A DNA stretch of 64,000 nucleotides from the IMG/VR virus record IMGVR_UViG_3300005529_000023, positions 96,001 through 160,000 of that record. One strand, given 5' to 3'. The number at the start of each line of letters is the position of its first letter. The stretch's first letter is position 1. This DNA comes from a virus. Positions 16,016-44,991 of this stretch are shown here, piece after piece. The position numbers were made by a program, and so were the translations under genes. The notes beneath the pieces were generated by a model. It had not been told where the DNA came from, ran no database searches, and saw only the letters and a list, made by a program, of their open reading frames with translations.

Positions 16016-16040
16016 TGTTTTCCCTTTCTTTCAGTTTCAG

Positions 16041-26615: not shown

Positions 26616-26786
26616 CTAGAGTTTTAGAACAATTTTAACAGCTTGCACAGCTGCATCGACAGCAGCCTTGATCAGTCCATGACCAAAGTAGCCGATTGCG
26701 ATGCCGCAAGCAAGATGTGACCAGCCATAAGCTTTCGCAAGCCAAGGCTGAACTTGTGCCCAAAGGGCGAGTAATTTAGCTTTCAT
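26616..26786 (-). CDS. 56-aa hydrophobic protein (not in ORF track)
   Basis: MKAKLLALWAQVQPWLAKAYGWSHLACGIAIGYFGHGLIKAAVDAAVQAVKIVLKL; AAGGAG RBS; overlaps the protease stop. Confidence 0.7.
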   Translation of the reverse strand: MKAKLLALWAQVQPWLAKAYGWSHLACGIAIGYFGHGLIKAAVDAAVQAVKIVLKL

Positions 26787-28248
26787 TTTTCTTCTCCTTC
26801 TTTTCGGCCATCATTATGCCGAGATTGTCGTTACCAGTTGAAAACGGTCCAGTACCAGTCATCTTGCGCAGACTTTTTTCGGCCCTGAGCGACTTGCTGA
26901 GAGCTAAAGTCCTACCGATTGCGTCAATTTCTCCCTTTGTAAGATGGGGAAGACGCTCTTGCATGAACTTGACGAACTGCTCGCGCTTTTCCCATTTCTG
27001 GTACTCTTCTTCCGCGCGAGCAAACCATTGCGACTTTTCTAGCTTTGGCTTGATCTGCTTCATCTCTTTGAGCGCTACTTTGGCATGTCGGCGTGCCATT
27101 TCTTTCGAACCATGGCCGGCGCTAGATGGCTGCCTGATGTGAGTTCCCATTACGCTAGTTCCACCCTTGGGATTGGAAGCGGGAGCCATATGTACGCCCT
27201 TGATGTTTTTGTCGAGATCTTCTTTTGCTAGAGCAGCACCTTGTGTAAGTTCTGAAGGCGCAGCTAGACCAGATCCTGCATCGAGGGCTTTGTGAAGAGT
27301 TGGCGCAAGTCTGGTTTGTTTTCTTTCAGCGGTACCAGCTGCCTGCATGTGAAGTTTCATCTTGTCTACGTGGTGAGCGCCAAGCTTAGGGTCTTTGGCT
27401 TTTCCAGCGGCAGCATGATGAAAGCCAGCAGCTTCCGTGTGGTCTTGGCTAGAAAACCCATGGTATTCATGAATTTTTGCGTGAGTGAAAACTTTCTTGC
27501 CTGACTTCGTAGTACCCATGTGAAGACCGGGGTTGCTAGTTGGCGATGCAATCGCAGGAGTATGCGCTTTTGGAGCAGCAGGAGGAACTTGGCCAGTTGT
27601 AGTCAGAGATTTTTGTATATCTTCTTGTTTCACTAGTTCTACGTAAGAAGGTTGAGAGAACTGAAACAGCTCAATCTCAGTCGATTCAGTCTTAAACAGT
27701 TCATTTATGTCTTTTGGCTTTCTTGGAGGCATGATTTCAGCAACCGCTGTCTTGTTACAGGGAGTCACAGTAATCGTGACTTTGCGGGCGATAGAACGAG
27801 GAATATCCATTCCCTTCTTTTCGATTCTTGCGCCTTCGATAGAGAAATTATTTACGTAAGCCTGATTCTGGCCCTTTTTGTCATGATCATAACGGAACTT
27901 TCCAGCCAAATCGCGAGCTGCGTCTGTGTAGTCATCAAATAGTTCACCCATCACATATAAGTAGGGAGTTTCGATTTTGCGCCAGAATTTCAATTGATGA
28001 TCGTCGTCGCAGTCTTCTTCTTTGAAGATCTTCTTAGCCTTAAGAATTTTTCCAACAACCATTGCAGGAACTTTGATTTGCAATTCTACGGGCCTACCAT
28101 CTTTATCTGGTACTTTTCCAGTTTCATGTTCAAAGTTGAATACTCCATCTTTTTCAAGACTTGAGATATCCATTCCAGCAATTGAAATACGTTCACCCGA
28201 ACTGTCAATGTTTTCTGAGGCAGCGATGCCGTGAATGAAAGTACTCAT
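26776..28248 (-). CDS. Prohead (head maturation) protease with long C-terminal extension
   Basis: FIHGIAASENIDSSGE, FNFEH, NFSIEGAR, VTITVTPCNKTA (HK97/U35-type His/Ser motifs). Confidence 0.85.
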   Translation of the reverse strand: MSTFIHGIAASENIDSSGERISIAGMDISSLEKDGVFNFEHETGKVPDKDGRPVELQIKVPAMVVGKILKAKKIFKEEDCDDDHQLKFWRKIETPYLYVMGELFDDYTDAARDLAGKFRYDHDKKGQNQAYVNNFSIEGARIEKKGMDIPRSIARKVTITVTPCNKTAVAEIMPPRKPKDINELFKTESTEIELFQFSQPSYVELVKQEDIQKSLTTTGQVPPAAPKAHTPAIASPTSNPGLHMGTTKSGKKVFTHAKIHEYHGFSSQDHTEAAGFHHAAAGKAKDPKLGAHHVDKMKLHMQAAGTAERKQTRLAPTLHKALDAGSGLAAPSELTQGAALAKEDLDKNIKGVHMAPASNPKGGTSVMGTHIRQPSSAGHGSKEMARRHAKVALKEMKQIKPKLEKSQWFARAEEEYQKWEKREQFVKFMQERLPHLTKGEIDAIGRTLALSKSLRAEKSLRKMTGTGPFSTGNDNLGIMMAEKKEKKNES

Positions 28249-29379: not shown

Positions 29380-30471
29380 ATGTATACCGAAACACAGCTT
29401 TCAAAGCTAATCGAGGACGTGGAAAAAGAATTCACGGCTCATTTGGCGAAGGCGGAGGAAGGCTTCAAAGTCTCTCTCGCTAAGTCAGAAGAAGCCAATG
29501 CTAATTCCGAACCTCTAGCTAAGGCTGAAGAAGGCGAAAAAAAGCCTCCTACAGAAAAAAAGCCTGAAGCTAAAGAAGGAAAGGAAGAAGGCAAGGAAGC
29601 CCCAAGTCACGATGGTAAGGAAGCTGCGCCAGCACCAGCTGAAGGCGAAAAGCCAGCAGAAGGCGCTCCAGCACCAGAAGCTAAGGAAGGCGCTCCAGCA
29701 CCAGCAGAAGGTGCTCCAGCTCCTGCACAAGGCGGAGACCAATGTGACTACGACGCGGAAGACTTGGAACACATGAGCAAAATGTACATGTCCATGTCTA
29801 AAGGTGAACTACTAGCTCACCACGACGCTGTCAGGAAGGCTTTAGATACAAAAGGAATGGGTGAACCCATGATGAAGTCTGAACTAAATGCTCATCCTGA
29901 TAATGCGCCAAAGCCAAAGGACAACGGTAAGTCGTTGGACAGCGATCCTGCCAACGGCGGAATTGTTGAACAGGCTCCTGACAATACGCCAGGTGCTAAG
30001 TCCGAAGCTAGCGGCCCAGCAGGTAAGAAGCCAAAGAAGGCTCCTGACTCTAAACGCAATGGTGGAGAAGAAGAGGGTCAAGAACCCCACGGCTCCCCAG
30101 GCGCTAAGTCGGAAGCTAGCAAGGCGGAAGGAAATCAAATGGAAAAGTCAGAAGTAGAACTAGTGAAGGCAGAACTCGATGCTGAGAAGGCCAAGAATGT
30201 AAGTCTTCAGAAGAACTTCGACGCAGTCCAGGTTTTTCTAACCAAGCTAGTTGAGAAGAAAGTTGCTCCAGCAGGTAAGGCTATTACCTCATTGGACGCT
30301 ATCACTAAGAGTGAAGGTATCGAAGAAAAGACCCTTACTAAGAGTGAGATCGATCAAATTCTTTTTAAGAAGTCCTCGGACCCTCTTCTAAAGAGTGAAG
30401 ATAGACAAGCAATCAACGCCTATTACCTAAATGGGGCAGGCATTAACAGTATCAGCCATTTGCTCAAATAA
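29380..30471 (+). CDS. Capsid scaffolding-like protein
   Basis: Immediately upstream of the major capsid gene; charged, low complexity; APAPAEG repeats; many LxK-S/A motifs. Confidence 0.7.
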   Translation: MYTETQLSKLIEDVEKEFTAHLAKAEEGFKVSLAKSEEANANSEPLAKAEEGEKKPPTEKKPEAKEGKEEGKEAPSHDGKEAAPAPAEGEKPAEGAPAPEAKEGAPAPAEGAPAPAQGGDQCDYDAEDLEHMSKMYMSMSKGELLAHHDAVRKALDTKGMGEPMMKSELNAHPDNAPKPKDNGKSLDSDPANGGIVEQAPDNTPGAKSEASGPAGKKPKKAPDSKRNGGEEEGQEPHGSPGAKSEASKAEGNQMEKSEVELVKAELDAEKAKNVSLQKNFDAVQVFLTKLVEKKVAPAGKAITSLDAITKSEGIEEKTLTKSEIDQILFKKSSDPLLKSEDRQAINAYYLNGAGINSISHLLK

Positions 30472-30499: not shown

Positions 30500-31897
30500 A
30501 TGATTGAACAACTTCAGTCACTAATGAAAGCTCTCGAAGCAGGTAGTTATAACGCTGCTCCAGGGCAACTTGCACAGGGCGCTGCCTTGATGGTTGAGGA
30601 TCTCTCGGCCGTCATGCAGAACGTCACATTTGATGACTCTCACATTAAGCTTCAGAAGATTCTTCCAAGCAAAGATGTGAAGTCTCAGCTACACCAATTC
30701 AACCGTCAGCTAGACTACGGTATCTTCGGTGGTTCCGCTCAGTTTGAAGGCGGAATCGGCGAAGAAGACACGAGCAACTACGTTCGTGCAGTAGTGCCTA
30801 TGGCATACTACAGCACGACTCGTCGTGTCACCGTTGCTGCTAACATGATCGGTGCATTCGACGGCGTTAAAGCCGAAGATCGCGCCGCTGCAGATGCAGC
30901 AATGAAGCTCGCGGGCGACATCGAATTTGACTGCTTCCGTGGTCAGAGCGATTTCTCGAACGCAGGTGTTTTCGATGGTAACCCTCTTGCCGTCGCAAAG
31001 CTTCCTAACATGATCGGTGTGGACCAACAGGTTCGTCAGTCCGATGCTCAACAGAACACTCAAGACCTGATGTTCGCTGAGTTCGGTTCTGATCAGACTG
31101 TTGTTCTCTCGGCAGGTGGAACTCTAACCCAGTCCATCATCGAGGACTCGTCTGTCCGTTCTGCAATGAACATGGGCGCTGCTGACCGTCTAATCCTAGA
31201 TCCAATCAGCCTCTCGGCCTATAACAAGATCGCGCACGCTAAGGAACGCATCATGCTCGCTGGCTCAGCCCAGGAAGCAACCGGCGCTCACCTTCGCACT
31301 CAGTGGACTTCCAGCGCAGTTGTATCCCTAGAAGCTTCGCGCTTCCTATCGGGTAAGACTCGCCCAGCTCGTCCACGTACCGGATCTCCATCGGCTCCTA
31401 CTGTCAGCCCAGCTGACGGTGGCGCAGCTGGATCGCTACTCCAGACAGGAACGTACACGTACTTCGTTACTTCCTGCTCGATGCGTGGCGAGTCGCTACC
31501 TTCGGCTTCTGCTTCGCAGGCAGTTACCGCAGGCGACAAGGTTGTTCTAACGATCACTGGTGCAGGCGCATACTTCAACGTCTATCGTTCGGACGTTGGT
31601 GGATCGGCCGCTTCGGCTAAGTTCATCGGCAAGGTCGCAGTCAATGCGGCTGGCACTGGTGCAACCTTCACCGACCTCGGCAATCGCCAGCCTGGTTCTG
31701 TCACTGGATTCCTAATCCAGGGCAACACTCTCGGCCTAGCTCAGCTTGCTCCTTACAGCAAGTTGAAGCTTGCGATCAGCGACCTCAGCTTGCCAGAAGC
31801 GCACTTCCGCTTCCTTTCGTTGGCTGCTTACCAGCCACGTAAGAACGTTCTCGTTGAGAACATCACTGGCCAGCTAAGCGCTAACTCTCAGAGCTAA
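30500..31897 (+). CDS. Major capsid protein (SPO1/Twort-like)
   Basis: 465 aa; N-terminal LMK-A processing-like site; GAALMVEDLS; Ig-like C-terminal insertion; strong codon bias; followed by a terminator. Confidence 0.9.
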   Translation: MIEQLQSLMKALEAGSYNAAPGQLAQGAALMVEDLSAVMQNVTFDDSHIKLQKILPSKDVKSQLHQFNRQLDYGIFGGSAQFEGGIGEEDTSNYVRAVVPMAYYSTTRRVTVAANMIGAFDGVKAEDRAAADAAMKLAGDIEFDCFRGQSDFSNAGVFDGNPLAVAKLPNMIGVDQQVRQSDAQQNTQDLMFAEFGSDQTVVLSAGGTLTQSIIEDSSVRSAMNMGAADRLILDPISLSAYNKIAHAKERIMLAGSAQEATGAHLRTQWTSSAVVSLEASRFLSGKTRPARPRTGSPSAPTVSPADGGAAGSLLQTGTYTYFVTSCSMRGESLPSASASQAVTAGDKVVLTITGAGAYFNVYRSDVGGSAASAKFIGKVAVNAAGTGATFTDLGNRQPGSVTGFLIQGNTLGLAQLAPYSKLKLAISDLSLPEAHFRFLSLAAYQPRKNVLVENITGQLSANSQS

Positions 31898-31973: not shown

Positions 31974-32654
31974 ATGTATATCCAAGGACTATCGATTGAT
32001 TGCATCTCTGACACGCATCGTCAACATGGCTGTCTCAGGCTCATGGGCGGAGACATTCTTATTTGTGCTGGCGACGTATCTTCTCGTGGATCATTGCCCG
32101 AGATCAAACAGTTCCTGGATTGGTTTGCCGACCAAGACTACAGTTACTTGATTCTCATTCCTGGAAACCACGACTTTGGCTTCGAGAAGTCTTGGGATTA
32201 CCTCAAACAGTATTGTGAAGATAAGGGCATTATTGTACTTAACGACTCTGGATGCGAAGTCGAAGGTATTAAAATATGGGGTAGCCCCATTCAACCTTGG
32301 TTCCATGACTGGGCTTTCAATCGTTGGCGTGGAGCGCCGATCAAGAAACATTGGGATCTCATACCAGAAGATACTGAAATTCTAATCACTCATGGACCTC
32401 CATACGGGATTCTCGATAGAACTCGTCACGGCGATATCGTGGGATGCAAAGATCTTCTTGAAAAAATCAAGAAAACCAAAATCAAACTGCACGTTTTTGG
32501 TCACATTCACGAAGGCGCTGGCTATCAGTACAAAGACGGTATTACGTATGTAAATGCGTCTGTTCTTGATGAGTACTATGGAGACCATGGTAAGGGAATA
32601 ATTCGTGTTATTAAGGACTTAGCCGGTGAGTACTTGGTTGAGAAGGAATCTTAA
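31974..32654 (+). CDS. Calcineurin-like metallophosphoesterase
   Basis: ISDTH, CAGD, PGNHD, LITHGPP, HVFGHIHE. Confidence 0.92.
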   Translation: MYIQGLSIDCISDTHRQHGCLRLMGGDILICAGDVSSRGSLPEIKQFLDWFADQDYSYLILIPGNHDFGFEKSWDYLKQYCEDKGIIVLNDSGCEVEGIKIWGSPIQPWFHDWAFNRWRGAPIKKHWDLIPEDTEILITHGPPYGILDRTRHGDIVGCKDLLEKIKKTKIKLHVFGHIHEGAGYQYKDGITYVNASVLDEYYGDHGKGIIRVIKDLAGEYLVEKES

Positions 32655-33403: not shown

Positions 33404-34054
33404 TTAATATCGAATAGTGCCCAATTCGTCCAAAATTCCATCTAGTTGACGACGAACATTTTCGATGTCTTGATTGGCATCAACCAGGAAAAGCTTCTTA
33501 TAGCCAAGTTCCAAAGCCGACTCATTCATGTGGCGAAGGAAAGAGTCGCGAACCTTCTCCTGGAAAGGAACACCCTTCATTTCGATAACGTCCATGCCAG
33601 TTCCACGTTTTACGCGACGCGCAAGAGCGGTATCGGTATCGACCTTGAAGTAGATTACCACATCGGGAAGAAGAGTTCCCTTGCCAACAACGCCCTTATA
33701 AAGAGCTTCTGTGAACTCTTGATTGACGTTGTGATCGGTATATGCGAGATGGCTGAACCAACCGCGATCCGACACAACGAAGTCAGGAGCATCGGTCCTG
33801 GCGGACAGGTCTCGAAGCCAGCGATCATTCTCATAGCGCATCGCCGAGAAGATCAACTCCATAGCCTCACCGCAGAGGTGGCTATTTGGGTCAAGTACTG
33901 TTTCACGTAACTTCACGCAGATAGGAACATTGGGGTTTCCCACTTCGCGAGTTTCAACTACCGATAGGCCGCGTGCGCGTGCCTGATCAATAAAATACTT
34001 TAATCCCGTGGTCTTACCTGCGCCATCTGTGCCTTCAAACTCAATTTTAAGCAT
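33404..34054 (-). CDS. tmk: Thymidylate (dTMP) kinase
   Basis: IEFEGTDGAGKTT, TREVG, VVSDRGWFSHLAY, LPDVVIY. Confidence 0.92.
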   Translation of the reverse strand: MLKIEFEGTDGAGKTTGLKYFIDQARARGLSVVETREVGNPNVPICVKLRETVLDPNSHLCGEAMELIFSAMRYENDRWLRDLSARTDAPDFVVSDRGWFSHLAYTDHNVNQEFTEALYKGVVGKGTLLPDVVIYFKVDTDTALARRVKRGTGMDVIEMKGVPFQEKVRDSFLRHMNESALELGYKKLFLVDANQDIENVRRQLDGILDELGTIRY

Positions 34055-34128
34055 ATTTCTCCTTTTCCTTAAATGTCTTAAATACTTATAAAGACGTGAT
34101 ATTTCACGCTCATAAGGGACTTTGTTCC

Positions 34129-34137
34129 AATCTTTAA
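34129..34137 (+). promoter_or_regulatory. Representative copy of the candidate late-promoter motif AATCTT(T)WA
   Basis: Similar copies precede late genes at 3319, 5562, 6174, 21744, 28260(-), 32647, 38095, 43217, 44124, 49723, 50365, 56769 and 58955. Confidence 0.65.
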
Positions 34138-34168
34138 CTTAGAGTATACCCTATTTGGAGTAAAAACG

Positions 34169-34615
34169 ATGAGACTTTCCGCAAGACCCCTACTAAATTA
34201 CAATAGCGCGAATGACTATGACTACGCCAATCAGTGGACTATCAGAGCGGGTGATCCCAACATTCTCTACTTCCAATTAGTAGATTTAGATAAGATCCAA
34301 AACAATGTTCCACTTCGTTATATCGCGGGAGTGGGCGGTGGTAATCAACCCGATAGCATTGTAGTCACATTTCCTTCGATCGATGCCACCTTACAGTTTA
34401 CTGCCAACGCTACGCAAGATCCCAATGACGGTTCTATTTGGTCTATCACCCTAGACGGCACAAAAACTCCCCAAAGCGGAAGCGTGCGCTTTCAAGTTAC
34501 TGAAGGAACCAATATTCGCAAATTCACCGTCATGGCAATGATCGGCGTAGAGAGTCCAAACGACGGATGTGACGGTGGCATTCCAGACGCCAACACCTTC
34601 ACCTTCAATCCATAA
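34169..34615 (+). CDS. Hypothetical virion protein (Ig-like, beta-rich)
   Basis: GGAG RBS; late motif upstream; 148 aa. Confidence 0.75.
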   Translation: MRLSARPLLNYNSANDYDYANQWTIRAGDPNILYFQLVDLDKIQNNVPLRYIAGVGGGNQPDSIVVTFPSIDATLQFTANATQDPNDGSIWSITLDGTKTPQSGSVRFQVTEGTNIRKFTVMAMIGVESPNDGCDGGIPDANTFTFNP

Positions 34616-34624
34616 GAGGTTTAG

Positions 34625-35455
34625 ATGGCTAATTTCAACTATGTAAAAAGCTATGGTACAGCCATGTACCCTGTTCACGCTTTGGAGACTTCCGGTCTCT
34701 TAAAGCGTGTTGAGCCATTTCTCACGCCAGAACAGCTAGTAAGTCGTTTTCTGAAAGGTATTCCTCTCGCATTTCCAAATGGCGATGTATTCACGCCAGA
34801 AGATCTCAAAGACCGTCTTTATTTGGCTCAAAACGAAGCGGAGCTAAGACTCAAAACTACAATCACCCGCGAACTTCGCCAAGAAAAGCTACCATTCAAG
34901 TCCGAAGACTACAAAGCTTACATTCACCTTCAGGCAGAACAAGGTCCGCTTTGTACGATTCACCAGCTTGCCATTTTCAGTGCCGACAAGAACAATATTT
35001 TCGAAATCCCACCAGAATGGATTGAAACATCAAATTTCAGCAAGAGCTTGATCAACGTCATCCCTCTACTTGCGGCATACGGCGTCAATTCCGTACAGGG
35101 TGCGGTTGGCAATGCTGGTATCGCATTCCTTACCGTTATTGATGGTTTGAATTGGGTTCCTGCTTATTGGCAAATTCAGTACACAAGCGGATTATCGAAT
35201 CAAGAAGGTAAGGTACCAGCCATCGTTAACGAGTATATTGGCTGTATCGCGGCTATCGCAATTCTCAGTGAAATTGCGCCTAGTTTCATTTATAATAGCC
35301 AGAGTCAGACACAAGACGGCATTTCTCAGTCCTCAAGCGGTCCTGGCCCAAGAATTTACATGCTTCGCATCGAAGAACTTACCAAGAAACAAGACGACCT
35401 AGAACGAAAGATCAAAACTATCTTCAACCAGCGCTTTAAGATCGGAAACTTCTAA
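34625..35455 (+). CDS. Head-tail connector/adaptor-like protein
   Basis: Position after the capsid genes; LTPEQL..RFLKGI; ELRLKTTI; C-terminal SQSQTQDGISQSSS pattern typical of SPO1-like neck proteins. Confidence 0.65.
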   Translation: MANFNYVKSYGTAMYPVHALETSGLLKRVEPFLTPEQLVSRFLKGIPLAFPNGDVFTPEDLKDRLYLAQNEAELRLKTTITRELRQEKLPFKSEDYKAYIHLQAEQGPLCTIHQLAIFSADKNNIFEIPPEWIETSNFSKSLINVIPLLAAYGVNSVQGAVGNAGIAFLTVIDGLNWVPAYWQIQYTSGLSNQEGKVPAIVNEYIGCIAAIAILSEIAPSFIYNSQSQTQDGISQSSSGPGPRIYMLRIEELTKKQDDLERKIKTIFNQRFKIGNF

Positions 35456-35464
35456 GAGGTTTGT

Positions 35465-36277
35465 ATGGAAAGTACATTACTTGATCTAGTCAAAGCTGAA
35501 AACCCTGAGGCGTACAAAAAGATCGCTGAAAAGGGTTTGATGCTCGCATACCCAGCCACTATCAGAGGTAAGACTCATAGACCCGACATTGGCATGCGCT
35601 ATCACACTACAATCAAGATGTTCGATTCAGACAAGGAAACTCCAGAATCTGTCAGTGGCCATGTTGAAAAACTGGACTATCCTAGTATCGACCCAAGAAA
35701 AGTGAGGGTCTCTCCGGCCGTACTAAAAGATCGCTTCGGTAATGACACGTACGCGATCAAACTTCAAGGTGAACATGATTCTCACATCCAGGAGAATAGA
35801 AAGAAACTTCAACAGTTCGGTTATCCTGGACATAAAATTGATCACCCTTCTCACATCACGGTAGATAAAAAGACGTTTGATGAAGTCTTCGCGAAAAAGC
35901 CAACTACCGCCCATGAAGCCGGTATTACATGGGGTCCAGCAGAACTTCGTGCGGGACACAAGGTACTTGATATCTACCATTCCAAGGAAGAGTCACACGA
36001 GAAGTTAGCAGCTTCTGAAAAGCATCTAGACACTTCTTCCATTCGCACTCTTATCATTATCACCCCAGAGCTTCAGCCACACATGAAGGCTCTTGCTCTA
36101 GACGACAAGATTCTAAAAAACTATGTCGAAGATCATCCTGTTTTGGCTAAATCGCTAGTTGAAAGACAGGACAAAAGATTTGAACACCACTTTGGTGAAG
36201 ATATTGAACTCATCAACATCGCTTGGACAAGAGGTCTAGGCGAAGCATATAAAGTTTTGAATAACAGAGGAAAGTAA
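35465..36277 (+). CDS. 2H phosphoesterase-like protein (two HxT motifs) in the virion module
   Basis: RYHTTIKMF and PSHITVD, about 87 residues apart. Confidence 0.65.
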   Translation: MESTLLDLVKAENPEAYKKIAEKGLMLAYPATIRGKTHRPDIGMRYHTTIKMFDSDKETPESVSGHVEKLDYPSIDPRKVRVSPAVLKDRFGNDTYAIKLQGEHDSHIQENRKKLQQFGYPGHKIDHPSHITVDKKTFDEVFAKKPTTAHEAGITWGPAELRAGHKVLDIYHSKEESHEKLAASEKHLDTSSIRTLIIITPELQPHMKALALDDKILKNYVEDHPVLAKSLVERQDKRFEHHFGEDIELINIAWTRGLGEAYKVLNNRGK

Positions 36278-36278
36278 G

Positions 36279-36785
36279 ATGCAAATTACTCCAAACGAAA
36301 TTGACACCGTAGAGCATGCCGGGGAACTGAATAAGAACCCTGTCAAAATGGTCCGAACCAAGGGCGGTTTCTGGATCGCCGTTGGTCGTCCAAAAGGAAA
36401 GCAGCGCGAGGAAGCTCTAGCAGCCGGCAGTCACCCTGCCATTGTTCGTTATAATCTAGAAAAGCAGTATGAAGATTTTCAACCTGCGATGATGAAAAGC
36501 GAACTGTTGCAGGACAACTCCGTAGTTGAAAGTCACTCGCATTACCTTAGCGATTCACTTCGTAAGTCTGGTCATGACATCTACTCTGTTCAAAACGGTA
36601 ACGATGTAGAATTTCACATCACTAAGCAAAATATGAAAGTTTCTACGGTTCCAGGGAAAATCGAAAACGATTCATTAGTTCTTAAGGAACTCAACATTCC
36701 CAGAGAATTCAGCAAGGCCATGGCCGGTGCCACAGTTGAAAAGGCGATGGGATGCAAAGTAGGACTAAAGCTAAAGAGTAAGTAA
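36279..36785 (+). CDS. Hypothetical head-module protein
   Basis: 168 aa; tightly coupled; MMKSE and LRKSG motifs. Confidence 0.75.
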   Translation: MQITPNEIDTVEHAGELNKNPVKMVRTKGGFWIAVGRPKGKQREEALAAGSHPAIVRYNLEKQYEDFQPAMMKSELLQDNSVVESHSHYLSDSLRKSGHDIYSVQNGNDVEFHITKQNMKVSTVPGKIENDSLVLKELNIPREFSKAMAGATVEKAMGCKVGLKLKSK

Positions 36786-37139
36786 ATGTGCATTAAAATC
36801 GTCCGAACCAAAGAAGAACTTGTTTATGATTCCTCGAAGCCCATCGAGGAACAGATCCGTGGCGCCAAACAGATCGTCATCAACTATGAACCATCCGATC
36901 CTGATTTGAACAGGTTTTTGGACGAGGTTGAAAGGCTTTGTAAGACTGGCGTTAGCGCACAGATGAATATCAAAGTGGTCCACAATGACTATCTCAATGG
37001 TGCTAAGACTAAAAAAGAAATATTGCATATGGTCAATGACCTGAAATTCAACGAAGTAATTAAGGCTATGGTTAAAGGCCAACATGAAACCGACAAGAGA
37101 CTTGAGGAACTACTCAATCTCTGCCGAGTTAGCAAATAG
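36786..37139 (+). CDS. Hypothetical protein
   Basis: 117 aa; abuts the previous stop. Confidence 0.7.
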   Translation: MCIKIVRTKEELVYDSSKPIEEQIRGAKQIVINYEPSDPDLNRFLDEVERLCKTGVSAQMNIKVVHNDYLNGAKTKKEILHMVNDLKFNEVIKAMVKGQHETDKRLEELLNLCRVSK

Positions 37140-37153
37140 GATATATAACAGGT

Positions 37154-38077
37154 ATGTCAAAGAGGCCCGCAGACGGCACGCAGACCGACACTATCAGTAG
37201 ATTCAGCCCACAAGTGCAAGAATCCTTTGATCTCAAAAAACTAGACGGTTTCGTTACCGGACTAGGGGTGGACTTTCTTCACTACCGAGCCATGCCTAGT
37301 CCTATCGGGAAAAAAGACCGTGGAGACTACCGCAGAGAAGACGGAGTGGACACAATTACTTCCAACGGCATGATCTACACCTGCGCAGGTAAGTTCACAG
37401 GAACTATGACCGACAACAGTCGCGAACAGAAACGTTCAGCTGGCGGAGTTCTAGATCCTTCTGAAGCCAGACTTGTAATGCCCCGCTTCTATAATTCTTG
37501 CACGGGAATGTCTGACGCTGATCGTATCTATTTAATGCCTGGTGACCGCCTCTATGTCGCTGACAAAGACGCCGATGTTCTCGTAGCTAATGCGCAAGAA
37601 ATTGATTATGACCCCGACAGAGACAATGAAGCTCTCTATCCCATCGTCAAGATTCAAGACATCGTTGATAGTCGCAATCAACCCTTCACATGTGGAACCG
37701 ATTTCGAAATCACTCCAATGGGCAACATCCGTTGGATCGCAGGTGGAAGAAATCCCGGCATAGACAACGATACCGGCAAAGGTCGCATCTATTCAGTCAG
37801 GTATTTATACAAAGCCTTTTACTACGTCGTAGCACTCCCAAAAGAAGTTCGCGTAACGAACGTCACTACTGCTGGAGTGAGAGCACCTGAAAGAATGGCT
37901 TATCACGCTATTATCGTTAGGGAATACATTTTCCACAATCAAAACAGGGGCGATAAACAGAATCAAAATCAGCCCAAGCAACCTCAAAGAGCGGATGCGC
38001 CTCCTACTGAATCCACCAATCCCAATAGGTATGCGATTCCAGTGGATATGTCCACTATTTACGAGGGAGACGAATAA
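37154..38077 (+). CDS. Neck/head-completion-like protein
   Basis: 307 aa in the neck region; GVDFLHYRAMPSP; RIYSVRYLYKAFYYV. Confidence 0.65.
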   Translation: MSKRPADGTQTDTISRFSPQVQESFDLKKLDGFVTGLGVDFLHYRAMPSPIGKKDRGDYRREDGVDTITSNGMIYTCAGKFTGTMTDNSREQKRSAGGVLDPSEARLVMPRFYNSCTGMSDADRIYLMPGDRLYVADKDADVLVANAQEIDYDPDRDNEALYPIVKIQDIVDSRNQPFTCGTDFEITPMGNIRWIAGGRNPGIDNDTGKGRIYSVRYLYKAFYYVVALPKEVRVTNVTTAGVRAPERMAYHAIIVREYIFHNQNRGDKQNQNQPKQPQRADAPPTESTNPNRYAIPVDMSTIYEGDE

Positions 38078-38134
38078 ATTGTATCGGGCAAAGCAATCTT
38101 AAAACAGGAATAACTATAAGGAAGTAAAGGATTT

Positions 38135-38578
38135 ATGAAAAATATTCGCAATATTCCAGGACACAATGTTCAAGACCCAGCAATACTCCACAACCTAGAG
38201 TACAACGATGCTGCGGGTTCGAAAAAGGTATCAGAAGTAGGTAGACACCTAATTCCAGTTCCTTACATCAACTCCGGCTCTCTTGCTTTCAAGACGGACC
38301 TATCGGCTGCCGCACAGGCACTCCCACAGCCAGGACTATGTTTAGCTATTTACAACAACTCCGCTTCTCTAGGATCAGTTACACTTGGGGAAGATGGCAC
38401 CATCACTTCACTAGCCCCAGGAGTTACTGATGGCAGTGGGCACGTTGGTGTTCCTTGTAAACCAAACGACTGGACGTATGTTGCTTGCGGGTCACAGCAG
38501 TGGGCAATTACTAGCGCGTCCACTCTACTTGTTTTCATTATCGACGACAACACTACTGTCAAAACTGAAGTCAAGTAA
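38135..38578 (+). CDS. Hypothetical virion protein
   Basis: 147 aa; late motif and AAGGA RBS upstream. Confidence 0.75.
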   Translation: MKNIRNIPGHNVQDPAILHNLEYNDAAGSKKVSEVGRHLIPVPYINSGSLAFKTDLSAAAQALPQPGLCLAIYNNSASLGSVTLGEDGTITSLAPGVTDGSGHVGVPCKPNDWTYVACGSQQWAITSASTLLVFIIDDNTTVKTEVK

Positions 38579-38592
38579 GAGGGACAGCTGCC

Positions 38593-39636
38593 GTGTCTAA
38601 CGCCGAACTCTTTCTAAAGAAAACTCTGGGCGAGGACTTTATGGAGTCCTTAGCCAAGGTTGAACTTTGGAAACCGGGTACCAGAAGTACCATCGATCAT
38701 GAAGAGCTTAAAACAGCTCTACAGATCGTGCCACGTACTGTTATGTCGCTACTCATTCGTGAGCTTGCGCCTATGGCTGTTGGAGAAACTAAAGAAGTAA
38801 ACCTTTTCGTTGCCGGCAACGCTATGATGCGCGTCACCAAGCACGAGCGCGACGTATATTCTGGTGAAATAGAACAGGACAATAAGAAAGTAGTCGATTT
38901 CAAATTCCGCGCTCTTCCCGGCGTCGGCCTTGTCATTATGAGTGCATTTGAACTCTACGACATGGAAAACCTAATCAATGCTTCTGACCGTAACATGCAA
39001 AATCCTATGGTAGAAGATGCCGAAGCCAAAGTACAAAGGATGATCGACGAACGTATTTCCATGACCGATCTAGTCAACAAAGTTGTTGATAGGAAGATGA
39101 TGGAGCGTCAGGCTATTCACGAAATGATGATGACTAAGCTCACCGATGAACTTCAGGCAATGAAAAGCATCGCTGCAGCACAGCAAGAAGTGATTATTGA
39201 TCACCAAAACAAGCATCGTCAAATTGCGGATCTTCGCGAAATGCAGGAAAGAACTACCCCTCAGACAGAAGAATACTTCAGGGGAATGACAAACGGACTA
39301 GAAGTAGCTAATGCTACAGTAAACAACCATGAACCCAAGTTCGTGGAGCCTCAAAAGAAGGTTCGTCCTCTCAAGGAATTCCTCGAAGGAAGAAAAAAGA
39401 AACCTTCCGAATTTTCGATCCAAGTAGCTAAGGGTGAAACCATTAGCTGCCCAGATTGCAAGAAAAACATCTTTGATGGCGCAGTATTCTCAGGCTGTAT
39501 TTGTCTTGGCGACGACAGAGAAAGAAAAGTGTTTATCAAGAAAAGCGAAGATGGGATCAAAGTTCGCTTTAGCCGTGGCTGGGACCAGGAAAACATTGAA
39601 ATGCTCCTAGAAGTGTTGAGGAGGAAGCGTGGCTAA
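38593..39636 (+). CDS. Hypothetical protein with coiled coil and C-terminal Cys cluster
   Basis: GTG start; CPDCKK...GCICLG. Confidence 0.75.
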   Translation: MSNAELFLKKTLGEDFMESLAKVELWKPGTRSTIDHEELKTALQIVPRTVMSLLIRELAPMAVGETKEVNLFVAGNAMMRVTKHERDVYSGEIEQDNKKVVDFKFRALPGVGLVIMSAFELYDMENLINASDRNMQNPMVEDAEAKVQRMIDERISMTDLVNKVVDRKMMERQAIHEMMMTKLTDELQAMKSIAAAQQEVIIDHQNKHRQIADLREMQERTTPQTEEYFRGMTNGLEVANATVNNHEPKFVEPQKKVRPLKEFLEGRKKKPSEFSIQVAKGETISCPDCKKNIFDGAVFSGCICLGDDRERKVFIKKSEDGIKVRFSRGWDQENIEMLLEVLRRKRG

Positions 39637-41242
39637 GATGTTGTATTTGAGCTACGACGGCGACAACTGCGGTAAAAAGGTAGGTCGCGCCATCCTGGCA
39701 AACGATGAAAAAGCACTACATGAGATCTCAGCCAAGATCGATCTTGGCCATGAGATTGTCAATCATTGGGTTGCCGAACACGGCGGAAAGAGAATTTCAG
39801 GCGGTGGAGACGAGGGATCTTTCAAGATTCCAGAAGAAACTGCTGGGGAGATTGAGTCCCTAAGAAAAGACTATCACTATGCGACTGGTATTACTATGTC
39901 TGTTGGCATTGGCAATAACCTCTCGGAAGCTGGAAGAGCACTTCTTGCTGCAAAGTTCAGAGGTAAAGATCAAGTCGCGCACTTTGACGAAAATGTCGAA
40001 AAGGATATTAAGAAAGCACGTCAACGTGTAAAAAAGGGCAAGGCTTCTCAAGATGAAGTGAAGCTTGCAGAAGCATATCTTGAAAAAGCTGAGGCTCCTA
40101 TGGAAAAAGAAAATGAAAAGAAGCCAGAAGAGGCTTTAGAACAGGCACCACAAGAAGGTGCTATACATGAATCTGAGTGTCCTTATTGTGAAGCTACAGA
40201 TGGCGTAGATCCAGACCATTGCAAGTACTGCCATGACGCAGATACTGCAGCTGGTCATGATGATTGTCCTTACTGCAAGCGAACGGAGGTAACGGGCGAT
40301 GACTGCCCTTACTGCAAGCAAATGGGTGAAACAGCAGGCGATGACTGTCCTTACTGCAAGCGCCCTGGCGGAGAAGCAGTGGGCGCCGCTGCGCCTGCCG
40401 ACCTAAGTGCCCCTGGCGCCGCAGCTGCCCTAGAAGCAGAGGCTTGCAAACAAAATGATCTAAATCCTCCTGGTATTGGCAAACCTGATCCAATCAGAGA
40501 AGTTCCAATCGAGGCGGCTCCTTCTAATGCAAGAGCGCTTCCTGAAATGCCACAAAAGCCAGATCCAGCTGCTCCATCTGGAGATGGTCCTATGGCCGGA
40601 ATCGATCCAGAAGACAACCACTCTACGGATGCTCTCAAGGCTATTGCTTCTCAAATCGAAGCCGAAGGCAATCCGCCAGCTAGCGAAGTAAACGCCATTG
40701 ATACTACCGAAACAGTAGAAGGTAGTAACATGGAAGGTACCACTTCGCGCCCCGAGGGATACGCACAGAACGTTCCTTCCGATATGGGGCTAGGACAGGC
40801 CAATAGTCCAGAAGGCGCAATTGAAGGACAGTCACAAGAAGATAGCAACCCTGATCTAACCTCAGTCCTTCAAGACGGGCTCCAGCAAGAAGCTTCGAGC
40901 ATTCAAAAAGATCGAGCCGTACAAATGGTTTCGTCTGCACTTCAAGGGTTCAAAGCAAACAAGCAGTATTTAGAACAGGCAAAACAAGCCGCTCCACAAC
41001 TCTACCAGTCCACCATCATGATGCTCAAAGCGATGATCGAAATGGCGAAAGCCCTTGGTTTAGGCGGTGGCGTAGAAGGATCTCCTAGTCCTCTTGACGC
41101 TGCGGCAGCGGGACAACAAACGGTAGCCGGTGGAAATGAATGGGACGACCCATTCCCAACACACCCTGATCAAGGCGGCGCACAGAAGCCTGGTCATCAT
41201 GCAGCGGGCCAGGAGGCCGCTGCTAAGGCCCCACAGCGATAA
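39629..41242 (+). CDS. mCpol/GGDEF-like nucleotidyltransferase domain fused to CxxC repeats and an acidic low-complexity tail
   Basis: LSYDGDNCG, ISGGGDEG, TMSVGIGNNLSEAGRALLAAKFRGKDQ; five CxxC units (four CPYC, one CKYC). Confidence 0.75.
   Translation: MAKMLYLSYDGDNCGKKVGRAILANDEKALHEISAKIDLGHEIVNHWVAEHGGKRISGGGDEGSFKIPEETAGEIESLRKDYHYATGITMSVGIGNNLSEAGRALLAAKFRGKDQVAHFDENVEKDIKKARQRVKKGKASQDEVKLAEAYLEKAEAPMEKENEKKPEEALEQAPQEGAIHESECPYCEATDGVDPDHCKYCHDADTAAGHDDCPYCKRTEVTGDDCPYCKQMGETAGDDCPYCKRPGGEAVGAAAPADLSAPGAAAALEAEACKQNDLNPPGIGKPDPIREVPIEAAPSNARALPEMPQKPDPAAPSGDGPMAGIDPEDNHSTDALKAIASQIEAEGNPPASEVNAIDTTETVEGSNMEGTTSRPEGYAQNVPSDMGLGQANSPEGAIEGQSQEDSNPDLTSVLQDGLQQEASSIQKDRAVQMVSSALQGFKANKQYLEQAKQAAPQLYQSTIMMLKAMIEMAKALGLGGGVEGSPSPLDAAAAGQQTVAGGNEWDDPFPTHPDQGGAQKPGHHAAGQEAAAKAPQR
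40178..40357 (+). repeat. Coding repeat of DDCPYCK-type units
   Basis: GATGA(C/T)TG(C/T)CCTTACTGCAAGC three times plus two diverged units. Confidence 0.85.
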
Positions 41243-41309
41243 GCCAATTGGGCAACCAATTGGCAAACTCTCGGCAAAACATACCACGGAACACGTAGCT
41301 AGGACGCCT

Positions 41310-41468
41310 ATGCCTCCTGGCGGTGTGAATGCTAAGGGTCAGCAAAAAGTGATCGATCCTAAAACCGGAAAAACAAGGTGGATTGACAGGAAGTCTGGAA
41401 TGGTGCAGAGCGCCACAGGGGTTCCAGTTAAGCCTCCTAAGCGAGGCAATGATGCCCCTCAAAATTAA
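41310..41468 (+). CDS. Small basic protein (or frameshift extension of the previous gene)
   Basis: MPPGGVNAKGQQKVIDPKTGKTRWID...; AGGA 5 nt upstream; the frame is open back across the previous stop. Confidence 0.5.
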   Translation: MPPGGVNAKGQQKVIDPKTGKTRWIDRKSGMVQSATGVPVKPPKRGNDAPQN

Positions 41469-42207
41469 GATCGATACGAGCGCAATCGCCAAGCAGATGA
41501 AAGAGTTCGCTACGGAAGTAGAGCAGGACTTAAGGAAGGGCGTTGCAAATCTCGCAGCTATTACTCACGCCAAAGTGAAAGAGATGGCGAGTGAGGAATT
41601 GAAATCGTCTCGTCAAGAAATGATGGACAACATCGGTTTTGAAGAAGTTGCCGAGGGAGTCTGGATTGTAAGTATCGCCGAAGACGCACTTTGGATCGAA
41701 GAAGGCATCGAAGCAAACAAGGACATGAAGCCTGATTTGCTCAAGAACGCCAAGCACACGTCTAAAGATGGCCACAAGTATCGCACCATTCCCTTCGATT
41801 ATGGCAAGCCCCCAACGCAGCTCACTGGTTACGCTCAAAATATAGTTGCTAGGATCAGATCGAACTTGAAAAAACAAGGCGTACCATTCAAGAAAATTGA
41901 AAAGGGTGCAAATGGTCAGCCTCTTACTGGGAAGCTTCACTCATTTGACTTTGGCGGAGAGATTCCTGGAAAAGGCAATACTCCAGTACTTCAAGGAGTG
42001 TCGATCTACCAGACCATCACGAAAACGGGTAACGTCCGACGTGATATATTGACTTTTAGAACTGTCAGTGGCGGCCCTGCAAGCGCAGGAAAATGGATTC
42101 ACCCAGGTTTTACCGCCAAGAAGTTCCTTGATCGTGCTCAGGATTGGGCTCTCAAGGAATGGGAAGACAAGATCCTCCCTGAGATTTTGGGGAAATACGG
42201 TAAATAA
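41452..42207 (+). CDS. Tail completion/neck protein (HK97 gp10-like position)
   Basis: GAGG RBS; MPLKIKID...KWIHPGFTAKKFLDRA. Confidence 0.65.
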   Translation: MPLKIKIDTSAIAKQMKEFATEVEQDLRKGVANLAAITHAKVKEMASEELKSSRQEMMDNIGFEEVAEGVWIVSIAEDALWIEEGIEANKDMKPDLLKNAKHTSKDGHKYRTIPFDYGKPPTQLTGYAQNIVARIRSNLKKQGVPFKKIEKGANGQPLTGKLHSFDFGGEIPGKGNTPVLQGVSIYQTITKTGNVRRDILTFRTVSGGPASAGKWIHPGFTAKKFLDRAQDWALKEWEDKILPEILGKYGK

Positions 42208-42209
42208 CC

Positions 42210-43214
42210 ATGGCTGGTATTTTTCAAGGCGACATCATCATCAAAACAGCTCTTGAGCTTGGCATCGAAGACATGCGCAAGAATCCATGGCTTATTGAGC
42301 ACATGTTGCTTGATCTGAAAAAGAATACTTACTTCTCTGACAAATACGGTCAGAAACAGATCGATGCGTGCAAAGAATGGCTCGCGAATAACCAAATCGA
42401 TGTCTATATGAGAGGAAGAGACGACAAGGATCGTCTTCCATGTGTAACGATCGAGATGGGCGGAAGTTCCGAAAAAGAAGAAATGAAACACATGGCCGAC
42501 CAATCTACTGAGAAGGTCGTCCTTTTACCCAACCAGATTAATAAGCCAATCGCTTATGTCCTCAAGCCATTCACGATCACTAACTACGACAATACTAGCG
42601 GCGAAGTAACAGTCGATCCAAGTATCGATCTAACCAGCGTCGCCCCCGGAATGATTCTCGTCGATCCTACTACCGGACAAGGGTACGTCATCCAAGATGT
42701 CATTGGAGAGGGTCTTCTTCTTGAACCAGCGCTTGATATCACTGCCACTGTATTCGGGATTGTTCCAGAGAATCAATTCTACGAAGCCAGGGTAGAGCAC
42801 TCGTTCTTTCAGGAAACGTACAATATAGGCTGCCACGCGCATGGTGACCCTCAGAACCTCCTATTCCTTTGGTCCATCGTGAAGTATTCAATTTTACGCT
42901 ACAGAGAAAGCTTGCTTGAAGCAAACGGTTTCATGGAAAGTTCCGTGAGTAGTACTGAACCAGATTTTGACGGTGCCTTCACAACTCCTGGCGGAGAAAA
43001 GGCATGGACTCGCGGCATCTCTTTGACAGGCCAAATTGAAAATACTTGGATCAAGTCTCCCCGCCGTATCATTGAATCTGTAGGTCTCAAGAAAAAGACA
43101 AATACTGGATATATTGGTGGAATTAGCATTATTTCTAACACAGATCCAGGCTTAGACGATAAAAGCCAAGTGAATTGGTACACCGATACTGAAGAAGAAA
43201 TTGATAACGAGTAA
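42210..43214 (+). CDS. Tail terminator-like structural protein
   Basis: 334 aa just upstream of the sheath region; RLPCVTIEMG; YNIGCHA. Confidence 0.6.
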   Translation: MAGIFQGDIIIKTALELGIEDMRKNPWLIEHMLLDLKKNTYFSDKYGQKQIDACKEWLANNQIDVYMRGRDDKDRLPCVTIEMGGSSEKEEMKHMADQSTEKVVLLPNQINKPIAYVLKPFTITNYDNTSGEVTVDPSIDLTSVAPGMILVDPTTGQGYVIQDVIGEGLLLEPALDITATVFGIVPENQFYEARVEHSFFQETYNIGCHAHGDPQNLLFLWSIVKYSILRYRESLLEANGFMESSVSSTEPDFDGAFTTPGGEKAWTRGISLTGQIENTWIKSPRRIIESVGLKKKTNTGYIGGISIISNTDPGLDDKSQVNWYTDTEEEIDNE

Positions 43215-43228
43215 CCAATCTTACACTT

Positions 43229-43570
43229 ATGCCATACCGTTCAGATGCTCAAAGAAGATGGGCTCACACTGCCGAAGGAAAGAAAGCGCTGGGTGGCAAA
43301 GCCGCTGTCCACGAATGGGACGAAGCTACTAAAGGCAAGAAGTTGCCTGAAAAAGTGGGCAAAACAGAGGATTTAGAAAAGGCCGTCAAAATGCCTTCAA
43401 CCTCCGTTCCTAGCGTCAAACCTCCGAATCCAAGTAACGCCGGTCAGCTTTCTGTTAAAAGTCCAAAAGCGAAGAAGATGGCTGATCCATTCGGTAAACC
43501 CTCGTTATTTTTCAAAGCAGAAAGTATTCAAAAGCTCCATTCTTTTTTAGAAGGCAGAAAGAAAAAATGA
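43229..43570 (+). CDS. Small basic virion-associated protein
   Basis: MPYRSDAQRRWAH N-terminus; late motif upstream. Confidence 0.7.
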   Translation: MPYRSDAQRRWAHTAEGKKALGGKAAVHEWDEATKGKKLPEKVGKTEDLEKAVKMPSTSVPSVKPPNPSNAGQLSVKSPKAKKMADPFGKPSLFFKAESIQKLHSFLEGRKKK

Positions 43571-44133
43571 GAAAATGCCTAGAATGTAAGCAAATTAAAC
43601 CAATAAAATGGTTCTATAAAGGGACACGAATTGGCGATGGAGTATTTTCTAAATGTGCTACTTGTAAACAAAAAGAACGTAAAAGAAGCGCATATCACTA
43701 CAAGAAGAAACTGGCTAAAAAGCTTACTCCTAAAAAAACAAAAAATCAGTACATGAAAGAGAGGAAACAAAAAGATCCTCTTTTTAAGCTACTAGTTAAT
43801 TTAAGAAATAGAAACTATTTCATATTTTCTGGACTAAACAAATCAAGTACTACCATTGACCTCTTGGGGTGCTCCATAGAGCATGCCAAAAATCATTTAG
43901 AAAAACAATTTAAACCAGGAATGAGTTGGCAGAATTACGGAAAAGAATGGCAAGTAGACCACATAATTCCGCTCAGAAGCGCTAAAAATAAAGAAAGTCT
44001 AGAAAGACTTTGTCATTTCAGTAATTTGCAACCCCTTTTCAAAGAAGAACACAAAATTAAAACCAAAGAAGACATGAAGTTAATAAAATCAATAACTTAT
44101 GTCAACAAAGATGTAAACAACCCAATCTTCTAA
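43567..44133 (+). mobile_element. HNH-type homing endonuclease
   Basis: CLECK...CATC; LLGCS...HLEKQF..GMSWQNYG..WQVDHIIP...CHFSNLQPL; very AT-rich. Confidence 0.85.
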
Positions 44134-44151
44134 TAGATAAGAGGTTTAAGT

Positions 44152-44700
44152 ATGGCTCATGAAAAACAGTATACACCTAAGCAAGTCACTATCGCCTTAC
44201 TCGGTAAGGTCGAAGAATTGCTTAAGAAGTCAGAGCTTACAAAAGCCAAAGACGACGCCAAAATGGTTCAGTGCAACAAATGTGGCGACATGTACAAAGC
44301 AGAAAGTAAGCATGATCGTTGTGTAGAACACGTAAAGCAAGTCAGCCCAGGAGTTAACAACCCACATGCTGTTTGCGTAGCGGAAGGCGTGAAGCCAGAG
44401 TCGTGGAACAAATCAGAAGGCGAATACAAACCTGAGAATGAACAAAAGCCAAACGCTCAGCCCTCTGAACACAACTCGCAAGATGCAAGTCAGCCAGCGC
44501 AGGGCAAGGCACCAGCAGGCGAGATTAAACCAAAAGAACAAGAGCAGGCGCCTTCTGACAACGTTCGCCCTACCGAGGGAACAGTTCCACACAACGGAAA
44601 TCCTCAATGGGGAGATGACCCGCAGGTGAGAGGTCATTTCAAATTGGCAAAGTTCATCGGCCATATGGAATCGAAGCGAAAGAGAAAGGTAGTCATCTAA
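44152..44700 (+). CDS. Hypothetical protein with Cys/His cluster
   Basis: CNKC...RCVEHVK..SPGVNNPHAVC; late motif upstream. Confidence 0.7.
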   Translation: MAHEKQYTPKQVTIALLGKVEELLKKSELTKAKDDAKMVQCNKCGDMYKAESKHDRCVEHVKQVSPGVNNPHAVCVAEGVKPESWNKSEGEYKPENEQKPNAQPSEHNSQDASQPAQGKAPAGEIKPKEQEQAPSDNVRPTEGTVPHNGNPQWGDDPQVRGHFKLAKFIGHMESKRKRKVVI

Positions 44701-44975
44701 TGGCTAAGAAAGAAAAAGATCAACAGGAGTCAGAAGAAATGACTCTAGAAGAAGCGAGAGCATTTAGAGCATCGCTTTACAAGCCTCAAAAGACGATTCT
44801 TACTCAGGCGCAAAAAAGAGAAGAATTTAGAAAGTTTTGGGCGAGAGAAAAGAAGAATTACGGAAAGTCCAAAGACTTGGAACAAATCTTATGGGTACAC
44901 CTTCTAGCAACCAAAATGGATGACCCCGAAAAGTTTGAAGCTGGCGTAAAGCACTTTGGACTTCAAAAAAGGTAA
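44700..44975 (+). CDS. Hypothetical protein upstream of the sheath
   Basis: 91 aa; TAATG overlap with the previous stop. Confidence 0.7.
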   Translation: MAKKEKDQQESEEMTLEEARAFRASLYKPQKTILTQAQKREEFRKFWAREKKNYGKSKDLEQILWVHLLATKMDDPEKFEAGVKHFGLQKR

Positions 44976-44991
44976 TTAAGGAGAAAAGACA

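Follow-up and report, generated by a model that had tools for sequence, protein, structure and literature searches.

A probable capsid-cargo 2H phosphoesterase of an uncatalogued family in the late structural block of an Mx1-like myophage

The gene at positions 35465-36277 of the window analysed here, a stretch of 64,000 nucleotides, encodes a protein whose 2H phosphoesterase fold is confirmed, whose placement in the Acb1 family is not upheld and whose role as a capsid cargo is probable, with its function standing as a prediction from sequence and modelled structure. The 2H family to which it belongs is uncatalogued, since it is absent from Pfam, PHROGs and NCBIfam, and current phage annotation is hence blind to this family. 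The gene fills a variable cargo slot in the head and neck block of Mx1-like myophages, in which different domains are shuffled, and its product carries on both sides of the 2H domain short motifs of a type that is repeated nine times in the scaffold-like protein of the same phage.

Source phage and gene organization

The window covers bases 96001-160000 of a single viral contig (176,870 bp; GC 46.6%; CheckV completeness 100% in the IMG/VR record) of an uncultured, Mx1-like member of a myophage group. Its major capsid protein (30500-31897) shares 52% identity with that of the cultured Myxococcus phage Mx1, and the next relatives of the capsid protein, with 25-29% identity, include those of SPO1-like Bacillus phages and of phages of Exiguobacterium, Lysinibacillus, Bordetella and Thermus. 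The ORF has the coordinates given in the initial annotation and a length of 270 aa. A GAGG ribosome-binding site lies 7-10 nt 5' of its start, and only 9 nt separate it from the upstream gene and 1 nt from the downstream gene; a promoter and terminator scan of 33900-45100 returned signals at chance level. The product, designated P0001 (the protein collection searched contains a 100% identical entry), and the parts discussed below are as follows.

35465-36277, plus strand: whole ORF of 270 aa with leader, 2H domain, linker and SLT remnant; ATG at 35465, TAA ending at 36277
35465-35500, plus strand: N-terminal leader, residues 1-12, ending in LVKAE (residues 8-12), a putative head-protease site; pLDDT below 50 for residues 1-11, K10 and E12 invariant
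35531-35989, plus strand: 2H phosphoesterase fold, residues 23-175, from the AlphaFold2 model (pLDDT mostly above 90), Foldseek matches and VIA-align Z scores
35603-35614, plus strand: first catalytic motif, H-T-T-I (H47), from alignment conservation
35852-35863, plus strand: second catalytic motif, H-I-T-V (H130), from alignment conservation
36005-36019, plus strand: linker motif LAASE, residues 181-185, a putative second protease site, from conservation in 11 homologues
36032-36271, plus strand: helical C-terminal domain, residues 190-269, corresponding to the rear half of an SLT lytic-transglycosylase domain and lacking its catalytic Glu helix, from alignment to the C-terminal part of long homologues

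An exhaustive phmmer search yielded 99 cluster representatives, and the 2H family amounts to about 100 clusters at 50% identity. P0001 itself had no match in Pfam, PHROGs or NCBIfam, and a profile search of PDB sequences with it returned nothing meaningful. Neither megablast of the locus nor tblastn of P0001 found a match among 50,697 phage records, so that this 2H family is absent from the cultured phages of that set; the gene context of relatives was taken from IMG/VR and GTDB contigs.

A 2H fold with conserved catalytic motifs

Two HxT motifs with the spacing of a 2H fold had been noticed in the initial annotation, and they prove to be real. YHTT occupies residues 46-49 (H47) and SHIT residues 129-132 (H130), with a His-His spacing of 83 residues. 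In an alignment of 62 sequences, the first position is His in 56 of 57 filled cells, with Thr or Ser at +2 in 54 sequences, and the second is His in all 61, with Thr or Ser at +2 in 58; such near-invariance of both histidines argues against a chance pair of motifs. The AlphaFold2 model built with 62 aligned sequences has a mean pLDDT of 91, and in it both motifs open beta strands of the 2H fold. Whether the fold might be other than 2H was checked, and the model, Foldseek (probability 0.99-1.0) and VIA-align all return the bilobed alpha+beta 2H fold.

Every clear Foldseek match in the PDB is a 2H enzyme, comprising Usb1, a phosphodiesterase of phage BCSR5, Acb1, LigT-like proteins, CPDase, rotavirus VP3, AKAP18, the penguinpox cGAMP phosphodiesterase and ASCC1, with the best E-values obtained for Usb1 (5e-4). 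For the BCSR5 phosphodiesterase (PDB 9Q2G), a literature search found no paper. Similarly, the top 38 entries in VIA-align are all 2H enzymes (Z 6.4-10.0) and cover residues 23-175 of the model. The highest-scoring is Arabidopsis CPDase 1JH6 (Z 10.0, rmsd 3.4 A over 141 residues), followed by VP3 (9.4), 1VDX (9.2), YjcG (9.2), Usb1 (9.1), LigT (8.8) and Acb1 7T26 (7.8). The best structural matches, namely CPDase 1JH6, the VP3 C-terminal domain 5AF2, LigT 5LDI, YjcG 2D4G and Usb1 6D31, align over 130-144 residues with Z 8.8-10.0 and rmsd 3.1-3.7 A, but these cellular and viral enzymes share only 5-15% identity with the phage protein and none of them is a virion component. At the level of sequence profiles, the LigT and 2_5_RNA_ligase2 models (PF13563, PF02834) matched neither P0001 nor the genome at E<=10, PF13563 weakly matched one of 67 homologues at 6e-4, and profile searches found no other 2H or Acb1 gene elsewhere in the genome. 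Given the 2H model, the structural matches and the near-invariant H47 and H130 with Thr or Ser at +2, the enzyme looks catalytically intact.

A variable slot in the head and neck block

The major capsid gene (30500-31897) and the tail sheath gene (44992-47142) lie to either side of the gene, and the synteny in eight related contigs bears out its location in a late structural block. The genes that frame it in this block are the following.

26776-28248, minus strand: homologue of the Mx1 'putative prohead protease', 37% identical to WNM70322.1 of Mx1 over the N-terminal part of the latter, and with a weak phrog_1028 match
29380-30471, plus strand: scaffold-like protein encoded upstream of the capsid protein, in which hydrophobic-x-K-[AST]-E was counted 9 times
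34625-35455, plus strand: upstream neighbour, adaptor-like (phrog_772), syntenic in all relatives; the records of phages Nachito and ST4 label its homologues as head-to-tail adaptor
36279-36785, plus strand: downstream neighbour of 168 aa, in which residues 71-75 form an MMKSE-type site that all six homologues, including that of Mx1, retain

The more specific description of the gene as lying among neck genes holds in part: the capsid-to-sheath block and the adaptor labels of the upstream homologues agree with it, but Pfam, PHROGs and NCBIfam revealed no neck family for the other neighbours, and a family search with the downstream neighbour gave no match.

Relatives of the gene were found in six IMG/VR loci (L002-L007) and on two MAG contigs (L011 and L012), one of these MAGs being a bog deltaproteobacterium bin. 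From the protease or scaffold gene onward, the gene order is kept in seven of the eight relatives; L011 is a 2.5-kb contig on which only the upstream neighbour is visible. In L002-L007 and L012 the slot is bounded by the adaptor-like gene and the homologue of 36279-36785, and its products measure 276, 296, 377, 408 plus 432, and 547 aa; that of 296 aa combines 2H with a small 'AQRRW' module, and that of 377 aa is 2H-SLT. The slot of Mx1 is occupied by a protein of 1479 aa that has GNAT, ART-PolyVal and NUDIX domains (WNM70333.1, annotated 'NUDIX hydrolase'; OR576727.2, 24404-28843; L001, 18690-23129) and is followed by a PI3/4-kinase-like protein. This Mx1 protein has in common with P0001 its position after the adaptor-like gene and an SLT-type C-terminal module, which is the only part matched by the family profile; it differs in its GNAT, ART-PolyVal and NUDIX heads, in its length and in having no 2H domain. 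Among the homologues, the domains joined to 2H in one protein are NUDIX (7 members), GNAT (5), VTC (4), SLT (3) and a PI3/4-kinase-like domain (1). While P0001 consists of the 2H domain and the SLT remnant only, homologues and the Mx1 slot protein have three to five domains. In BFVD, the best matches are 2H domains within large actinophage proteins labelled as capsid morphogenesis or structural proteins.

In four homologues, P0013, P0027, P0050 and P0106, the 2H, NUDIX and VTC (triphosphate-tunnel) domains occur in one polypeptide, in varying order and sometimes with SLT at the end. Such a set may amount to a three-enzyme processing of nucleotides or RNA ends that is delivered by virions. A genome search found no NUDIX domain in the phage studied here, so the NUDIX partnership of its relatives does not apply to it.

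An analogous kind of protein has been described by Iyer, Burroughs, Anand, de Souza and Aravind (2017), who treated the 2H domains of phage 'polyvalent' virion proteins and of their solo counterparts and predicted that packaged 2H domains degrade nucleotide signals or act as RNases (PMC5512222). Judged by its sequence, the present locus fits this class, and a cargo enzyme of its kind had thus already been predicted. Shared features are a 2H domain encoded in a virion block, relatives that carry NUDIX, GNAT, ART and cell-wall lytic domains, the lack of linkage to RNA ligases, and the predicted injection and action on nucleotide signals or RNA. What sets P0001 apart is that it is a small two-domain protein rather than a giant fusion, that its family is uncatalogued and that its domain borders bear a motif in common with the scaffold.

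A recurrently truncated SLT domain

Among the close homologues of P0001, short forms (266-287 aa) can be told from long ones (357-382 aa). After LAASE, the long forms have an additional Ala/Gly-rich hydrophobic stretch and a segment with V-E-S-x-x-G-K, which holds the catalytic Glu in the E-S helix. In the alignment with long homologues, the V-E-S-x-x-G-K segment is absent from P0001, which retains only the counterpart of residues 278-375 of the long homologue P0003. The model of P0003 (pLDDT 85.7) comprises the 2H domain, a disordered linker and then a domain that matches Cj0843, Slt70 and Pseudomonas Slt. Residues 191-266 of P0001 match residues 611-687 of P0106, which fall inside the Pfam SLT match of that protein (572-692). 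By the Pfam SLT model, P0023 scores above the cut-off (24.1 bits), and P0106 and the L005 ORF score more weakly, below it. A search of the genome with SLT (PF01464) gave no match at 36032-36271; a canonical SLT gene is present elsewhere in the genome.

In the tree of 2H domains the short forms are scattered, with P0001 sister to the long P0003, P0008 sister to the long P0010 (support 96/94), and P0006 grouping with P0007 and P0009, from which it follows that the same truncation arose at least three times. The short-type homologues P0001, P0005, P0006, P0008, P0016, P0030 and P0052 have all lost the hydrophobic linker and the catalytic half of SLT and kept the last ~85 residues. Because the truncation recurs in at least three branches, the retained SLT half probably has a role of its own, which could for instance be docking in the capsid.

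Protease-type motifs and probable packaging

The two putative protease sites that had been noted on either side of the domain, LVKAE at residues 8-12 and LAASE at residues 181-185, are both present and conserved. Among the 11 closest homologues, K10, E12, L181, A182 and A183 are invariant and S184 and E185 are conserved to at least 90%; in more distant homologues the place of LAASE is taken by K[AS]E. Both segments are poorly ordered or linker-like, and the word LVKAE also occurs in the scaffold protein. Genome-wide, hydrophobic-x-K-[AST]-E is found 28 times, of which 9 copies lie in the scaffold (363 of 54,661 residues) and 19 in the other 54,298 residues, and the scaffold homologues of four relatives and Mx1 retain such motifs. 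At the N-terminal border, K[AST]E occurs within 14 residues upstream of the 2H domain in 37 of 74 complete domains (about 2% expected), and at the C-terminal border [KA][AST]E occurs within 45 residues downstream in 44 of the 57 2H domains with a C-terminal tail (about 5% expected). With expectations derived from the within-domain rate of 0.0012 motifs per residue, this is an enrichment of about 15-30 fold. In 24 cases more than 40 residues lie ahead of the 2H domain, and in 12 of these the motif stands before it. In the 1479-aa protein of Mx1, K[AS]E lies at 131, 309, 608 and 1253, outside the mapped GNAT, ART, NUDIX and SLT domains, and at 955 within NUDIX.

Since the motif is present nine times in the scaffold and borders the 2H domain in a majority of the homologues, it can reasonably be inferred that the protein is packaged and then released by the head protease. 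By analogy with known systems, it is probably a capsid cargo that would be set free by cleavage within the capsid and be injected along with the DNA. The T4 internal proteins are packaged and injected (PMC9958956), and the head protease of SPN3US cuts after A-x-E (PMC10052503). The T4 proteins IPI-III and Alt and the ejection proteins of SPN3US and phiKZ are likewise non-structural proteins that are loaded into the prohead, where the head protease trims them at a short motif whose last residue is Glu, and that are injected with the DNA (PMC9958956, PMC10052503). The motif of the present phage differs from these, being hydrophobic-x-K-[A/S]-E instead of L/I-x-E or A-x-E, and its cleavage is predicted from the sequence pattern. 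Counted against packaging are the lack in LAASE of the Lys of the scaffold motif and the occurrence of the upstream motif in only half of the homologues, and a motif so rich in Lys and Glu could partly reflect linker composition.

The alternative is a late cytoplasmic enzyme that is never packaged, with incidental flanking motifs, which would destroy nucleotide signals or heal RNA late in infection, when capsid or protease proteins trigger CBASS-type systems. Co-transcription with the late genes, with tight spacing and no internal promoter or terminator signal above chance, suits such an enzyme, as do the half of the homologues that miss the upstream motif and the precedent of T4 Acb1, which is cytoplasmic and whose gene adjoins late and neck genes in T4. 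Against it stand the enrichment of the motif at the domain borders, the fusion to SLT, an ejection-type domain that acts in the periplasm, and the slot shared with the ART-PolyVal protein of Mx1, and we regard it as rather unlikely.

Two further observations concern this motif type. In the downstream neighbour (36279-36785), six phages, Mx1 among them, share an invariant hydrophobic-x-K-S-E near residue 75, and from its sequence this neighbour is probably another protease-processed head protein. IAASE at the N-terminus of the protease itself, which is similar to LAASE, was considered as a cut site and rejected, as relatives have IAASQ or IASSQ there.

Predicted mode of action and substrate

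Fold, catalytic motifs, synteny, slot shuffling and motif enrichment are observed; packaging, cleavage, ejection and substrate are predicted. In the resulting scheme, the protein would be synthesized late and enter the prohead, where the prohead protease would cut at sites of the hydrophobic-x-K-[A/S]-E type, at LVKAE (residue 12) and probably also at LAASE (residue 185). A 2H enzyme of 19.6 kDa (residues 13-185) would thereby be freed from the small SLT-remnant domain and be ejected with the DNA, becoming active ahead of any phage gene expression. Its most likely task would be the hydrolysis of a host nucleotide-based immune signal, with cyclic or 2'-5'/3'-5'-linked oligonucleotides or 2',3'-cyclic phosphate compounds as candidate substrates. 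Such a signal is favoured by analogy, on account of the viral precedents (Acb1, VP3, ns2 and the poxvirus cGAMP phosphodiesterase) and the conflict-type domain company; NUDIX, VTC/TTM and GNAT partners would be equally in keeping with RNA-end chemistry and with nucleotide signals. For the complete chain, from an active, packaged and protease-released 2H enzyme to its ejection with DNA and hydrolysis of a host nucleotide immune signal, we see about even chances.

Physiologically, a packaged and injected enzyme would be present ahead of any host nucleotide alarm. This advantage in timing was predicted by Iyer et al. (2017; PMC5512222), and we found no report that demonstrates it for a phosphodiesterase. 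The locus makes for a clean test, with one small enzyme and two defined candidate cut sites, in a slot where related phages exchange enzyme heads such as GNAT, ART, NUDIX and VTC.

RNA rather than a nucleotide signal has to be weighed as the substrate in two forms. Repair of RNA ends, already proposed in the initial annotation, would make the protein a 2',3'-cyclic phosphodiesterase of RNA which, together with the phage Pnkp and RNA ligase, mends the ends left in tRNA or mRNA by host anticodon nucleases. LigT-like proteins, YjcG and plant CPDase are indeed among the best structural matches (Z 8.8-10.0), and Pnkp and an Rnl2-type ligase are encoded in the genome. However, the Pnkp-ligase pair is located about 115 kb away and already has its own HAD 3'-phosphatase domain, virion-type 2H domains never occur in linkage with RNA ligases according to Iyer et al. 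(2017, PMC5512222), and repair gives no role to the flanking protease-type motifs or the SLT fusion. The proposal is thereby weakened and appears quite improbable. The other form is a Usb1-like RNase, or an attacker of host RNA, delivered at entry to start host RNA decay, with the NUDIX and TTM domains of fused relatives acting on 5' ends. It is one of the two options given by Iyer et al. (2017, PMC5512222), the best Foldseek E-values are those of Usb1 (5e-4), and NUDIX and VTC/TTM partners could act on RNA 5' ends; with no special preference for Usb1 in VIA-align (Z 9.1 versus 10.0 for CPDase) and no RNA-binding domain in the protein, we consider it decidedly improbable.

Relation to Acb1

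The label 'Acb1-like' does not survive as a statement of family membership. The Pfam Acb1 model PF23474 has no match to P0001 at E<=0.1, none in a six-frame search of the genome at E<=10 and none among the 67 homologues at E<=0.001. Aligned by hhalign, the family profile and T4 57B reach a probability of 1.4%, with an alignment that covers only the second H-I-T motif. In VIA-align the Acb1 structures range from Z 7.4 to 7.8, with 7T26 at rank 32, and CPDase, VP3, LigT-like proteins and Usb1 outscore them, seven other 2H families in all being higher. The comparison by Foldseek with Acb1 and LigT that had been suggested finds both among the clear 2H matches. Protein-language-model neighbours (score 0.92) include viral clusters in which 25-97% of the members carry Pfam Acb1, a proximity that shows only a resemblance to viral 2H proteins. 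By profile searches, the protein is outside the Acb1 family, and a true but divergent Acb1 orthologue, an anti-CBASS nuclease with the Acb1 substrate range, is highly improbable: the language-model neighbours and the alignable Acb1 structures are outweighed by the absent profile relation and the higher structural scores of the seven other families.

Acb1 (T4 gene 57B; Erwinia phage FBB1, PDB 7T26/7T27; Hobbs et al. 2022, PMC9117128) resembles the present protein in being a 2H enzyme of phages, in its pair of H-x-T motifs and in its overall fold. The present protein, for its part, has a larger domain (about 155 versus about 140 aa) with one more helix at the N-terminus, and in addition protease-type motifs on both sides and a remnant of SLT. 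We know of no report of Acb1 as a packaged protein, and T4 Acb1 works without packaging.

Other genes in the late block and beyond

The same virion block encodes, at 39629-41242 (plus strand), a protein of 537 aa whose residues 6-117 form an mCpol (minimal CRISPR polymerase) domain (Pfam 2e-14) with a GGDE motif. LEKAE lies at 151-155, just after the cyclase domain, and homologues exist in all related contigs including Mx1. A pairing at entry can be imagined, in which the 2H enzyme and this mCpol protein, encoded three genes downstream, would both be capsid cargo, the former erasing host cyclic-nucleotide alarms and the latter supplying a decoy nucleotide by which a Panoptes-type guard effector is kept silent; we hold this to be a long shot. 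If true, the pair would defeat the alarm and also the guard that watches for alarm-erasers.

At 43229-43570 (plus strand), a separate gene of 113 aa corresponds to the small module found in some slot products, with the words AQRRWAH...VHEWDEATKGKKLP; a family search with this module gave no match. It is fused directly after the K[AS]E site downstream of the 2H domain in L005, L007 (10001-11644), L012 (7980-8870), P0012, P0037, P0040 and P0101.

Outside the window (G000:C1, about 14835-16960; L008), the genome encodes a T4-like RNA repair pair, in which Pnkp (AAA_33 kinase plus HAD_PNKP) adjoins the Rnl2-type RNA ligase (PF09414 plus PHA02142 OB domain). Within the late region, a metallophosphoesterase gene (phrog_1649; 31974-32654, plus strand) directly follows the capsid gene, and an endonuclease VII/HNH-like gene (43567-44133, plus strand) lies in the structural block, both being further non-structural inserts.
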